Virus record (IMG/VR): IMGVR_UViG_3300037420_000666
Source: a virus
Taxonomy: Duplodnaviria > Heunggongvirae > Uroviricota > Caudoviricetes
Direction: 5' to 3' (one strand)
Length of the DNA stretch: 14,365 bases
The stretch's first letter is position 1; every line of letters begins with the position of its first letter. Positions 2,573 to 13,119 of the stretch are shown here, piece after piece. Under the pieces are notes generated by a model, which did no database searches, was not told the origin of the DNA, and saw only the letters and a program-made list of their open reading frames with translations. A program made the position numbers and the translations under genes.

Positions 2573-3820
2573 TTATGCGGCGAGGGCGGCAGCCCACATG
2601 TCGGGCTGCGTGGCGCCGTTCTGGTAGACGATCTCGGGCAGCACGGTGTCGGCGGTGGGCTCGTCGCCTTCCCAGCCGTCCGGCCACGTCTCGGCGGCGA
2701 TCAGCTCGCGGATGCGCGCCTCTTCCTTGGCGTTGATCAGGCTGATCTCGGGCCGGCGCAGGGCGCGCGCCGCGGCGTTGCACTCGGCCTGGATGCCCAG
2801 GACGCGCTCCAGCGCCATGGAGCGGGCCTCCAGCGTCAGCGGGCCCATGCGCTGCGGGTTCTTGGCGATCGCGCCCGACTTCAGGCGCTCGGCGCCGGCC
2901 TTCTTCAGGCGGTGCTGCGGTTCGCGCAGCTCACGCCACAGCCGCTTCAGCCCGCGCAGCGGCGCCAGGTACTGCCAGTGCGGCAGGGCCAGCACCGTCT
3001 CCAGCGCCTTCTCCTCCTGGGCCAGCGGGCAGCCGATGCAGCCTGTGCGCGCGTTGATCTCCTCGGCCTCGTCGCCGCCGTAGGCGTCCGCGATGGCGGC
3101 CGTGCTCCAGTCGCCGAACTCGGCCGCGGGCGCCCAGTGCTTCAGCCACTCCCACACGTGGCACACGCGCCAGTGCAGCAGCGGCGCGAGGGTTGCAATG
3201 CGGCCGCGCAGACCCTTCGCGTTCGGCAGCACCTGCTGGTACCAGCCTTGGCCGCACTCGGCGCCATCCTTGCTGCAGCTCATTTCGATGCGCCGGTCAC
3301 GGATGGCGCTCTCGCCCTGGCGCACGCCGGTGATCATCAGGAAGTTGCCTTGCAGCTGCAGCGCGTCCAGGCGCTGCTCCAGCGCGTGCTGCATCGGGTC
3401 GATCTTGATCTGCCGCGTGCACCACCTCAGCGTGTTGTTGTTCGGCGGCGGCACACCGCGACCCAGGATGTAGACCATAAAGCGCTTGTCCATGGGCGCA
3501 CGCACCACGTCCACCTGGATGCCGCGCTCGCGCAGCTCGTCCATGATCTGTTCGGCTGCGATGGCCAGCGGCGGCAGCTCCTGGCGCGTGTCGGCGTAGA
3601 AGATGGTCAGCGACTGCGGCGCCGCGATCTGCCCGGCGTCGATCAGCCAGCAGATCATGGTGAGCGTTGCGCTGCTGTCCTTGCCGCCTGACCAGGCAAT
3701 GCCCCAGTGCGGATGGTCCGGGCCGTAGGCCTGCAGCGACTGAATCGTGAGCTCGATGCTCTCGGTCATCTGCAGGCGCTGCGCGGTGGCGTCGAAGAAG
3801 CTGCTCTGTATGCGGCTCAT
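2573..3820 (-). CDS. PP-loop ATP-pyrophosphatase / PAPS-reductase-like protein (DndC- or phage DUF3440-like)
   Basis: Start set at ATG 3820 (MSRIQSSFFD...) with GAGGGAAGGA upstream; the longer frame starts at GTG 3889. Contains the canonical PP-loop SGGKDS (WGIAWSGGKDSSATL) and a cysteine-containing C-terminal half (TGCIGCPL). A 14-nt gap to the next gene suggests one operon. Confidence 0.8.
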   Translation of the reverse strand: MSRIQSSFFDATAQRLQMTESIELTIQSLQAYGPDHPHWGIAWSGGKDSSATLTMICWLIDAGQIAAPQSLTIFYADTRQELPPLAIAAEQIMDELRERGIQVDVVRAPMDKRFMVYILGRGVPPPNNNTLRWCTRQIKIDPMQHALEQRLDALQLQGNFLMITGVRQGESAIRDRRIEMSCSKDGAECGQGWYQQVLPNAKGLRGRIATLAPLLHWRVCHVWEWLKHWAPAAEFGDWSTAAIADAYGGDEAEEINARTGCIGCPLAQEEKALETVLALPHWQYLAPLRGLKRLWRELREPQHRLKKAGAERLKSGAIAKNPQRMGPLTLEARSMALERVLGIQAECNAAARALRRPEISLINAKEEARIRELIAAETWPDGWEGDEPTADTVLPEIVYQNGATQPDMWAAALAA

Positions 3821-10780: not shown

Positions 10781-10806
10781 GTGTCCTCCGTGGGGTTGAT
10801 GGAGGA

Positions 10807-10835
10807 ATGTTAGGCATAGCCTTACTTGCCGTCAA
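10807..10835 (-). promoter_or_regulatory. PL-like early-left promoter (candidate -35 TTGACG, 17-bp spacer, -10 TAACAT on the minus strand)
   Basis: Minus strand reads TTGACG (top 10830-10835), a 17-bp spacer, TAACAT (top 10807-10812), then GGAGGA and the ATG at 10780. Operator repeats lie in the spacer and just upstream of the -35. Confidence 0.45.
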
Positions 10836-11006: not shown

Positions 11007-11028
11007 AAAAAGCCCGCACGAGGCGGGC
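11007..11028 (-). terminator. Intrinsic (rho-independent) terminator of the repressor/cargo transcript
   Basis: On the minus strand a GC stem GCCCGC(11023-11028)/GCGGGC(11012-11017) with a 5-nt loop is followed directly by UUUUU (top AAAAA 11007-11011). Lies about 30 nt downstream of the J-domain gene stop (11060) and upstream of the PL region. Confidence 0.55.
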
Positions 11029-11059: not shown

Positions 11060-11590
11060 TTAGTTTCGTCCGATCCAGCGGATACCAAGCCAGGCCAAGC
11101 CCGAAAGCAATGGAAGCGACAAGTTCAGGGCCAGGAACCCGTTCTCGGTAAGGTTGTAGTCCCATCTCCAGATGACACCCCAGAGCTGCACAGCAACTAC
11201 CCACAGAATGCTGGCAACAATCCAGGCGCGTGTCCGTCGCCTGCACTGCTCGCGGATCGCCTTCAAGCGCACTTCTGGCTTGGCAGCCTCAAGCACCGAC
11301 AGCAGCTTGGCGTGCCCGCCTCCATCTGCATATCGAAGGTAAGCGTCGTACTTCTTGCGCCGCTCCGGGTCTCCGAGGGTGTGCAAGGCCTGCTGAGTGA
11401 GCGCATACCGGGCGGGCGCGTCCTTGCTGCCACAGCCCGTTTTTGGGTGGTAAGTGGCGCTGAAAAAGCTGTGCGCCATTTCTATGTAGTCTTGCGTGGC
11501 ATTCGGCTGTAAATCAAGAACTCGATAGAAATCAACGATTCCATCTGCCCTTTTGAACTCGTCTAATACACGCTGCGCATCCTCGTCCAT
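11060..11590 (-). CDS. Membrane-anchored J-domain (DnaJ-like) protein with HPK in place of HPD
   Basis: 176 aa. Residues about 20-85 align along the whole J-domain pattern (DFYRVLDLQPNATQDYIEMAHSFFSATYHPKTG...ALHTLGDPERRKKYDAYL versus DnaJ DYYEILGV...YHPDRN...AYEVLTDSQKRAAYDQYG). The tripeptide is HPK (codons CAC CCA AAA, top 11441-11449). Two C-terminal hydrophobic segments (AWIVASILWVVAVQLWGVIW, FLALNLSLPLLSGLAWLGIRWI). Lower GC than the flanks; in the repressor-cargo region. Confidence 0.75.
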   Translation of the reverse strand: MDEDAQRVLDEFKRADGIVDFYRVLDLQPNATQDYIEMAHSFFSATYHPKTGCGSKDAPARYALTQQALHTLGDPERRKKYDAYLRYADGGGHAKLLSVLEAAKPEVRLKAIREQCRRRTRAWIVASILWVVAVQLWGVIWRWDYNLTENGFLALNLSLPLLSGLAWLGIRWIGRN

Positions 11591-11645
11591 ACCGCTCCCT
11601 TGTGATTATATTTAGCGAATTAACCTGAAATCAGTTTCGAATTTC

Positions 11646-11657
11646 TCGAATATTCGA
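11646..11657. promoter_or_regulatory. Perfect 12-bp palindrome TCGAATATTCGA with adjacent TTCGAA, upstream of the J-domain gene
   Basis: Located in the AT-rich 78-bp spacer between the 77-aa ORF and the J-domain gene. A perfect TATAAT (minus strand, top 11605-11610) lies 14 nt upstream of that gene's ATG. Candidate regulator-binding site and internal promoter. Confidence 0.35.
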
Positions 11658-11668
11658 TTGCGAGTGAG

Positions 11669-11902
11669 TCAGCGTATTCGCTGAGCCAATTCATCATCAA
11701 GCGCAGCTAACATCCCGCGAGCAAATGTTGGATTCCGATGGGCTTCGCCGCTGGTATTTACAACGAACCCTCGTTGTTTTGTCATTGCGGCGTATGCGAC
11801 CCCTATCACTTCGCCTCGTTCCGCTCGCTCCAGAAGGTTTCTTAAGTCGGCCACCACGTCGTGTGGGGCCTCCTCCCGAACGAGGCGAAACGGAGGCTTC
11901 AT
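11669..11902 (-). CDS. Hypothetical 77-aa protein coupled to the repressor gene
   Basis: ATG overlaps the repressor stop (ATGA at 11899-11902) and is preceded by AAGGAAA. Sequence MKPPFRLVREEAPHDVVADLRNLLERAERGEVIGVAYAAMTKQRGFVVNTSGEAHRNPTFARGMLAALDDELAQRIR; no family recognised. Lower GC than the flanks. Confidence 0.55.
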   Translation of the reverse strand: MKPPFRLVREEAPHDVVADLRNLLERAERGEVIGVAYAAMTKQRGFVVNTSGEAHRNPTFARGMLAALDDELAQRIR

Positions 11903-12744
11903 GACTTCTTTTCCTTGCCGCTTTCATCGGTACGGATGATCCGCTCCATGCCCGGCATGGGGCGGTCGCTGAAGTACTTACCGCCGGGCGGCTGTTCCTT
12001 CTGAACCGGAACAGCGCGCGCGGTGCGCCCGATCCTTTCCAAGAATCGAGGCAATTCCTCCCGTGGTTTTATTTTTCGTGCCGGCACAGGGTGCGGCACG
12101 TAATAGACCCAAGTTACTTCGGTGGGGCTGAAACTTAAAACTTCCGGCGAGTTATAACTTCCAAATCTCCACCCGCCGCGCCGGCTCAGCAGTCGCTTGA
12201 GCATAGTCGAACCATCGGCCAAGCGCACAAGAACGTCATCCTCAAGATCGGGGTCGCTGCTTGGCTCGACTAGCGCATATTCGTTTGGCATGTATTTGGG
12301 GATCATCGAATCTCCGACGACCCGGCAGACAAACGCGTAATCGTCGCTGCTGAGCACCTCGGCAAATTCGGTGGCCTCCGAAAGCCAGTTGTCATCGAAT
12401 ATCCGCTCCGGCATTCCTCCCTGGCAGGTGCCGCACACGTAGACCGGGCGGACGCTGCGCGCCGGGAGTGTCTGAGGCGGAGCACTCTCTGTCGCAACCA
12501 TGACTGACAGGCCAGCACTGACCGTGCCCGGGTAGGCCGTCAGGCCCCAATGCTCCGGCCCAACCACATTTGCAAACAGAGCCCAGAGCCCCGGCAGCTT
12601 CTCCTTCGAGATGGTTCCGCGGTTCACCCAGTCCTGGATCGTCGGCGGCTTGACCCCGAAATGCTCCGCCAGGGCTTTCTTGGTGATGCCCTTTTTTAGT
12701 CTGGCCGCCTCGATGGCTTGCCCTAGTTCGATCCCGGTAAGCAT
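11899..12744 (-). CDS. CI/LexA-like prophage repressor (N-terminal XRE-type HTH, C-terminal S24 peptidase domain)
   Basis: 281 aa. N-terminal HTH (LGQAIEAARLKKGITKKALAEHFGVKPPTIQDWVNRG) and an S24 autoproteolysis domain with Ser and Lys motifs (VVGDSMIPKYMPNEYALV ... DGSTMLKRL). Carries an unusual ~60-aa C-terminal tail. Divergent from a Cro-like gene; AGGA lies 10 nt upstream of the ATG. Confidence 0.9.
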   Translation of the reverse strand: MLTGIELGQAIEAARLKKGITKKALAEHFGVKPPTIQDWVNRGTISKEKLPGLWALFANVVGPEHWGLTAYPGTVSAGLSVMVATESAPPQTLPARSVRPVYVCGTCQGGMPERIFDDNWLSEATEFAEVLSSDDYAFVCRVVGDSMIPKYMPNEYALVEPSSDPDLEDDVLVRLADGSTMLKRLLSRRGGWRFGSYNSPEVLSFSPTEVTWVYYVPHPVPARKIKPREELPRFLERIGRTARAVPVQKEQPPGGKYFSDRPMPGMERIIRTDESGKEKKS

Positions 12745-12760: not shown

Positions 12761-12813
12761 TAAGGCAGTGAGTAGGCAATTCCTTGCAGAATTGTTAGGC
12801 ATAGCCTTATCAT
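12761..12813. promoter_or_regulatory. OR-like operator/promoter region between the repressor and Cro-like genes
   Basis: Contains TGTTAGGCATAGCCTTA (12793-12809, identical to 10808-10824), an imperfect copy TAGGCAATTCCT (12773-12784) and half-site TAAGGC (12761-12766). Candidate rightward promoter: -35 TTGCAG (12784-12789), -10 TATCAT (12808-13), which places the transcript start at or next to the cro ATG (12820). Confidence 0.5.
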
Positions 12814-12819
12814 GGCGCC

Positions 12820-13119
12820 ATGAACGATCCCATCAACGACCTCGGCGGTCCGACTGCGGTGGCAAAGATGCTGTGCATCAAGGCCCCGTCCGTCGTCCAG
12901 TGGAAAGGCCGCATTCCGGCTGAACGGCGCGTGGACCTGGAGCGCGTCGCCTACCCCAAGTTCTGGGTTGAGCGCGCCGGCGACGACGTGCGCTGGCAGC
13001 GCGTGCCCGATCCCGAGTGGCCGCATCCCGATGGCCGCCCTTGTATCGACGTTGCCGCGATGCGCCCCCCGCTCCCCCAAGCCGCCGCCGCAGCTCCCCA
13101 GGCTGTGGCTGCGAGCTGA
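12820..13119 (+). CDS. Cro/YdaS-like HTH regulator
   Basis: 99 aa. DLGGPTAVAKMLCIKAPSVVQWKGRIPAERRVDLERV matches the YdaS/Cro-type HTH pattern (...QW..rG.iPaeR...iE..). Divergent from the repressor across the operator region. No Shine-Dalgarno upstream, so possibly leaderless. Confidence 0.75.
   Translation: MNDPINDLGGPTAVAKMLCIKAPSVVQWKGRIPAERRVDLERVAYPKFWVERAGDDVRWQRVPDPEWPHPDGRPCIDVAAMRPPLPQAAAAAPQAVAAS

Follow-up and report, generated by a model that had tools for sequence, protein, structure and literature searches.

The window analysed here is the whole stretch of 14,365 bp, which forms part of a 45-kb metagenomic contig of a temperate phage (JGI Ga0395908_0000467). On its minus strand, a cI-like gene, a gene for a 77-aa protein, an untranslated spacer, a gene for a J-like protein, an intrinsic terminator and a pL-like promoter follow one another in this order. 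A Cro-like gene, whose start lies at 12820, diverges from the cI-like gene. The features of the locus are listed below.

11899 to 12744, minus strand: gene for a CI-like repressor with HTH_3 and Peptidase_S24 domains; first gene of the operon.
11669 to 11902, minus strand: gene for a 77-aa protein of an uncharacterised family found behind phage repressor genes; overlaps cI by ATGA.
11591 to 11668, minus strand: junction spacer of 78 nt that separates the 77-aa gene from the J-like gene; AT-rich (38.5% GC) and untranslated.
11646 to 11657, no strand: perfect 12-bp palindrome TCGAATATTCGA with arms CGAAT/ATTCG.
11636 to 11641, no strand: TTCGAA, a 6-bp palindrome; the third TCGA core in the spacer.
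11605 to 11610, minus strand: TATAAT, reading ATTATA on the top strand; candidate for a −10 hexamer, with the ATG 14 nt further on.
11595 to 11600, minus strand: Shine-Dalgarno sequence AGGGAG, read from the sequence, 4 nt ahead of the J-like ATG.
11060 to 11590, minus strand: J-like gene of 176 aa with an N-terminal J domain (Pfam DnaJ PF00226, E = 1.6e-10, passing the cut-off).
11007 to 11028, minus strand: intrinsic terminator GCCCGCCTCGTGCGGGC followed by TTTTT, with a hairpin of −12.3 kcal/mol; a T_IMM-like end of the immunity operon.
10800 to 10835, minus strand: pL-like promoter TTGACG-17-TAACAT upstream of the early-left genes; its operator block recurs in the cI/cro intergenic region.

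We evaluated the spacer with respect to its composition and motifs. A preliminary description had reported a 78-nt, AT-rich gap between the ORFs of the 77-aa protein and the J-domain protein. The coordinates of both ORFs (11669–11902 and 11060–11590) agree with this, and the spacer forms the deepest GC trough in the window. The lowest GC content was 0.346, in a 78-nt frame around the spacer, versus a mean of 0.68 (sd 0.068), and that of the cI/cro control region (0.449) was above this trough. The motifs named in that description were also recovered. The palindrome TCGAATATTCGA was found at 11646–11657 and is perfect over 12 bp, TTCGAA is present at 11636–11641, and exactly 14 nt (11591–11604) separate the perfect TATAAT from the ATG at 11590–11588.

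The probability of these motifs was estimated by shuffling the spacer while keeping its dinucleotide composition. A perfect 12-bp palindrome was obtained with P = 0.029 and a coding-strand TATAAT with P = 0.043; TCGAA/TTCGA occurs in four copies, and a 5-mer repeated at least four times was obtained with P = 0.085. Throughout the window, TATAAT/ATTATA occurs only once, while four perfect 12-bp palindromes were observed versus 7.1 expected from mononucleotide shuffles. Close copies of the spacer palindrome were absent elsewhere in the window, the best matches having two to three mismatches and lying inside coding sequence. Thus, the AT-rich composition of the spacer is clearly beyond chance, and the individual motifs, given this composition, are only mildly unusual. 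The sequence TTCtcGAAtaTTC (11643–11655, plus strand), just upstream of the J-like gene, matches the eukaryotic heat-shock-element pattern TTCnnGAAnnTTC. As no bacterial factor is known to read this pattern, the match is almost certainly a coincidence brought about by the TCGA repeats.

The transcriptional organization of the operon was predicted from its junctions and signals. The cI-like and 77-aa genes overlap by ATGA (11899–11902) and are translationally coupled. In the spacer (11591–11668), no terminator-like site, that is, no G+C-rich hairpin followed by a T run, was found. The folding energy of the spacer RNA was −13.3 kcal/mol versus −17.5 kcal/mol in shuffles (z = +1.3), so that it folds more weakly than its own shuffles, and Rfam covariance models gave no match to the spacer at E ≤ 1. 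As the spacer contains neither a terminator nor a stable hairpin, nothing in it would stop a transcript from the repressor promoter, and the first intrinsic terminator along the operon is the one after the J-like gene (11028–11007). Read-through from the repressor promoter into the J-like gene, as proposed in the preliminary description, is therefore supported by the architecture: the ATGA overlap, the terminator-free spacer and the same layout in the orthologous locus L035. The predicted co-transcription of cI, the 77-aa gene and the J-like gene is well supported by this arrangement.

The promoter TTGACG-17-TAACAT itself occupies 10835–10807. A 25-nt block is common to 10800–10824 and 12785–12809 with 88% identity, and it holds dyads of the TTAGGCATAGCCTTA type and TGTTAGGCATAGCCTTA. 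The two copies are likely the OL and OR operators of the CI-like repressor. Because the shared block flanks the cI, 77-aa and J-like genes, the J-like gene lies inside the immunity unit. It is the last gene of the immunity operon, the place that rexB takes in lambda.

A candidate pR, TTGCAG-18-TATCAT (12784–12822, plus strand), reaches to within 6 nt of the start codon (ATG, 12820) of the cro-like gene. This distance between the TATCAT −10 and the ATG implies a leaderless cro mRNA. Another perfect 12-bp palindrome, CATGGCGCCATG (12811–12822), overlaps the cro-like start codon. At its N-terminus, the repressor is similar to RacR (NCBIfam NF049929; the match, with E = 4.6e-26, does not reach the cut-off of that family).

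We characterized the J-like protein by its sequence. Transmembrane-like segments were found at residues 121–143 and 151–170, in the C-terminal part. Residues 47–52 of the J domain are YHPKTG in both the window and L035, so that HPK replaces HPD, and distant J-like relatives have HPS, DPK, GPS or LSK where HPD is expected. It is probably a J-like protein without the usual stimulatory action on DnaK. The GC3 of the J-like gene is 0.67 in the window and 0.64 in L035 versus 0.85–0.95 for backbone genes, and the gene is compositionally foreign in both phages. Its relatives are very few. When 5.8 billion clustered proteins were searched, at first with one sequence as the query and afterwards with a profile of two sequences, only two clusters were returned, the protein itself and one relative. 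Searches for further J-like loci gave only generic DnaJ in genome contigs, nothing in viral contigs and one unrelated DnaJ in metagenome contigs. A DNA pattern search with the back-translated J-like gene gave one off-frame false match, and a profile made from the distant relatives found canonical DnaJ of large phages and no added locus. Five contigs carry an identical J-like protein; they are 100% identical to the window, four of them being shorter, and offer no comparative variation.

The orthologous locus L035 has the order repressor, 93-aa homologue of the 77-aa gene, J-like gene, terminator and pL, as in the window, and the equivalent terminator directly follows its J gene. The two J-like proteins share 74% identity over all 176 residues with the same start; the start codon is confirmed because the L035 protein aligns from residue 1 (MDQEEQQ versus MDEDAQR). 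The L035 spacer is 35 nt long, its J-like gene starts with GTG and AGGAG lies upstream. The stretch matching TATAAT reads TATGCG in L035, and no promoter-like site was found upstream of its J gene. The alignment of the J-upstream regions of the window and L035 was no better than chance (P = 0.245). These conservation tests rest on n = 2, because L035 is the sole diverged orthologous locus. The repressors of the window (11899–12744, minus strand) and L035 (2363–3304) are 71% identical in the C-terminal (S24) half; their N-terminal DNA-binding domains are unrelated and the operators differ. Judged from these alignments, the pair reads as a clean case of an immunity-specificity swap by domain exchange.

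The 77-aa protein belongs to a family of 151 clusters at E ≤ 1e-3. No match to the protein was found in Pfam, PHROG, PADLOC or NCBIfam, or by tblastn against isolate phage genomes. Its AF2 model (pLDDT 84) has an alpha-beta-beta-alpha arrangement and gave no significant fold neighbour in the PDB. The family gene is always located just downstream of a repressor-type gene. We examined 59 family loci (from L035–L089 and L098–L100). Seven of them, recognized by eye (L039, L046, L068, L071, L074, L086 and L100), have a terminator and a pL-like region right behind the small gene. An inverted-repeat scan confirmed four of these cargo-less loci; the sequence of L072 is the same as that of L071. Other loci carry unrelated cargo behind the small gene, after short spacers with a Shine-Dalgarno sequence. 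Many of these cargo genes (loci L036–L100, 0–150 nt after the small gene) encode signal-peptide or lipobox-like N-termini. The position behind the 77-aa gene thus reads as a cargo slot, and the genes in it are candidates for lysogenic-conversion or exclusion functions. From its position, one may speculate that the 77-aa protein is a RexA-like partner of CI.

On balance, and with modest confidence, we favour the reading that the spacer is an ordinary intra-operon junction that also serves as the leader for translation initiation on an acquired cargo gene; weak, adventitious transcription initiation at TATAAT may come in addition. The spacer would be the internal untranslated junction of a PRM-type immunity operon composed of cI, the 77-aa gene, the J-like gene and the terminator. 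Relatives end the operon in the slot after the 77-aa gene or carry an unrelated gene there, often for a lipoprotein or membrane protein. Here, the J-like membrane cargo may have arrived with an AT-rich, unstructured leader bearing its own Shine-Dalgarno sequence. Because there is no translational coupling across the spacer, ribosomes must load afresh on the J-like gene, and we infer that the unstructured A/U-rich leader with its Shine-Dalgarno sequence provides what ribosomes would need to bind independently to a polycistronic mRNA rich in GC. In the lysogen, most transcription of the J-like gene would come from the repressor promoter by read-through and would stop at 11028–11007. TATAAT may add weak constitutive initiation, as is often the case in AT-rich DNA; the hexamer is not conserved and not evidently regulated.

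The best surviving alternative gives this hexamer a larger role, and its model is lambda, in which the cI-rexA-rexB operon ends at T_IMM and a further promoter, PLIT, located within the distal part of rexA, also serves rexB (bioRxiv 10.1101/2021.04.19.439022). As in lambda, the repressor gene is first in the immunity operon, accessory genes lie on the same lysogenic transcript and a membrane protein is last; an intrinsic terminator stands right after the last gene, followed by the early-left promoter and operators. PLIT would be the counterpart of a spacer promoter for the J-like gene. The housekeeping sigma factor would then start transcription approximately 7 nt past TATAAT, giving a short leader of approximately 8–10 nt in addition to read-through, and the J-like protein would still be made when PRM is off, as is RexB from PLIT.

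One argument for this alternative is the lambda precedent, in which an additional promoter serves the final gene of the immunity operon. In the window, the candidate −10 precedes the last gene of an operon that begins with cI and has a T_IMM-like terminator. The hexamer at 11610–11605 matches the sigma-70 −10 consensus at six of six positions, is the only one in the window and lies within the deepest AT trough. The A/T-rich sequence upstream could serve as an UP-like element, and consensus −10 elements are able to fire despite poor −35 elements. The phage also seems tolerant of minimal leaders, since the cro-like gene begins 6 nt past its TATCAT −10. Two other cargo spacers of the family, those of L056 (which contains TATAAT) and L067, look AT-rich.

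Against this stands the quality of the rest of the promoter. The best −35 candidates, CTGATT at 18 nt and ATTTCA at 15 nt, each match at three of six positions. There is no TG of an extended −10, the bases upstream of TATAAT being AAA and not TGn, and a consensus promoter scan made no call at the spacer TATAAT. The best −35/−10 composite scored 9/12 at a non-optimal spacing, which is reached by 14% of shuffled spacers. Transcription would start at approximately 11598, inside the Shine-Dalgarno AGGGAG (11600–11595); an mRNA with its ribosome-binding site at the very 5′ end is awkward, not disqualifying. In the one orthologue, L035, the hexamer is replaced by TATGCG in a 35-nt spacer with no promoter-like site. 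The gene needs no promoter of its own because it already lies in a lysogenically expressed operon. There are also differences from lambda itself: PLIT lies inside the rexA coding sequence, whereas the candidate −10 here occupies non-coding DNA only 14 nt ahead of the J-like ATG; the accessory proteins here showed no RexA or RexB homology in family scans of both; and the candidate promoter is not conserved in the one orthologous locus. The separate, regulated promoter that the preliminary description had suggested for the J-like gene is thus weakly supported by the sequence, given the weak −35, the lack of TG, the start within the Shine-Dalgarno sequence and the lack of a −10 in L035. We regard a PLIT-like promoter as rather unlikely.

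Another alternative concerns the palindrome, which the preliminary description had proposed as the binding site of a regulator. Comparison with related loci gave an ambiguous answer to this proposal. The exact palindrome was not found in L035 or in 62 related loci, but its arms CGAAT/ATTCG are shared with L035. There, TGACGAATAggTATTCGTCA (3588–3607) is a 9 + 2 + 9 inverted repeat that spans the stop codon of the 93-aa gene, and the arms are common to this repeat and to TCGAAT|ATTCGA of the window, each just upstream of the J gene. In this alternative, the dyad would have a function in cis: it would accompany the J-like gene and tune its expression relative to cI, either as a protein site (an operator or a roadblock) or as an RNA or DNA hairpin for processing or stability of the distal mRNA. 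Such a role is compatible with both the junction and the PLIT-like promoter.

It speaks for a functional element that each J gene is immediately preceded by an AT-rich inverted repeat and that the two repeats have their arms in common. In shuffles of the L035 upstream region, an arm of at least 7 was obtained with P = 0.006 and an arm of at least 6 containing CGAAT with P = 4e-4. Four such dyads occur in 629 kb of loci, corresponding to 5e-4 to 9e-4 expected per 83 nt, and no AT-rich dyad was found after the small gene in 57 other family loci. A coincidence therefore seems unlikely, with a probability of roughly 1e-3 to 1e-2 when post hoc recognition is allowed for. Both arms are kept in an otherwise unalignable spacer, which points to selection; the shared dyad hints that some of the spacer is maintained for more than ribosome loading. 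The L035 dyad is also predicted to form an RNA hairpin of −8.5 kcal/mol (z = −3.1).

The two dyads differ in geometry, however. The arms abut in the window (gap 0) and are 4 bp apart in L035, and the distance from the dyad to the start codon is 61.5 nt versus 35.5 nt, a difference of 26 nt. One rigid dimer site does not fit both dyads, because the arm gap differs by 4 bp and the position also differs. An RNA-structure role is not conserved, because the hairpin of the window palindrome is negligible (−2.4 kcal/mol, z = −0.3). The motif was recognized post hoc with n = 2. The CI operators, of the TTAGGCATAGCCTTA type, do not resemble the palindrome TCGAATATTCGA, and L035 has no adjacent promoter for the dyad to regulate. 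The 77-aa protein was considered as the binder and rejected, as its model gave no DNA-binding fold match and the 57 other loci of its family have no AT-rich dyads after the gene; this leaves the element with no candidate binder. We consider a functional element that tunes J expression unlikely. The dyad may be a cis-element that has been conserved, or it may be left over from the end of a shared cassette. That it is a dedicated cis-regulatory element, moving with the rare J-like cargo and gating expression inside the immunity operon via an unnamed factor, appears very unlikely. If such gating were true, the last gene would be uncoupled from repressor synthesis, a PLIT-like logic achieved by another device.

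Other functions of the spacer were considered and rejected. It does not act as a terminator, attenuator or structured RNA on the present evidence of no hairpin with a T run, a weak fold and no Rfam match, and it is not the CI-bound pL/OL control region, as the shared operators and TTGACG-17-TAACAT sit downstream of the J-like gene (10800–10835). A decayed 3′ end of the 77-aa gene was rejected because the downstream frame, translated by eye, is unlike the C-terminus of the family. An antisense promoter on the plus strand was not compelling (best composite 8/12), and no convincing match to sigma-32, sigma-E, sigma-54, LexA, IHF or ARG box sites was found by eye against their consensus sequences.

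The favoured reading, an operon junction ahead of acquired cargo, was compared with further known systems. Hendrix and colleagues reportedly introduced the concept of the moron, an accessory gene that is inserted between conserved genes and has a promoter and a terminator of its own. The J-like gene resembles a moron in its atypical composition (GC3 0.64–0.67 versus about 0.9), its variable slot, the AT-rich sequence upstream and the terminator after it. Unlike in morons, the terminator here is the operon's own and stands at the same place in cargo-less relatives, the candidate promoter is absent in L035, and the host operon alone can explain expression. As for the protein, E. coli DjlA is a membrane J-domain protein. 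A J-domain protein encoded by a phage is also known, namely Rki of the T4-related phage RB43 (PMC3486835). The gene studied here is likewise a phage gene with a Pfam J domain, and its product would be anchored in the membrane as is DjlA. It differs from both in having HPK for HPD, in lying in the immunity operon of a temperate phage and in its C-terminal transmembrane segments.

Features of this kind are already familiar, and there is little to make the case for one in this spacer. By-products of the analysis are nevertheless useful: a large uncharacterised family of 77-aa proteins coupled to CI-type repressors, the cargo slot behind it, and a very rare HPD-less J-like membrane protein. If a regulated promoter in the spacer were real, it would provide a second case, outside lambda, in which the last gene of an immunity operon is expressed independently of the repressor. 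Such a case would bear on how prophage accessory functions, such as exclusion and abortive infection, stay on during induction.
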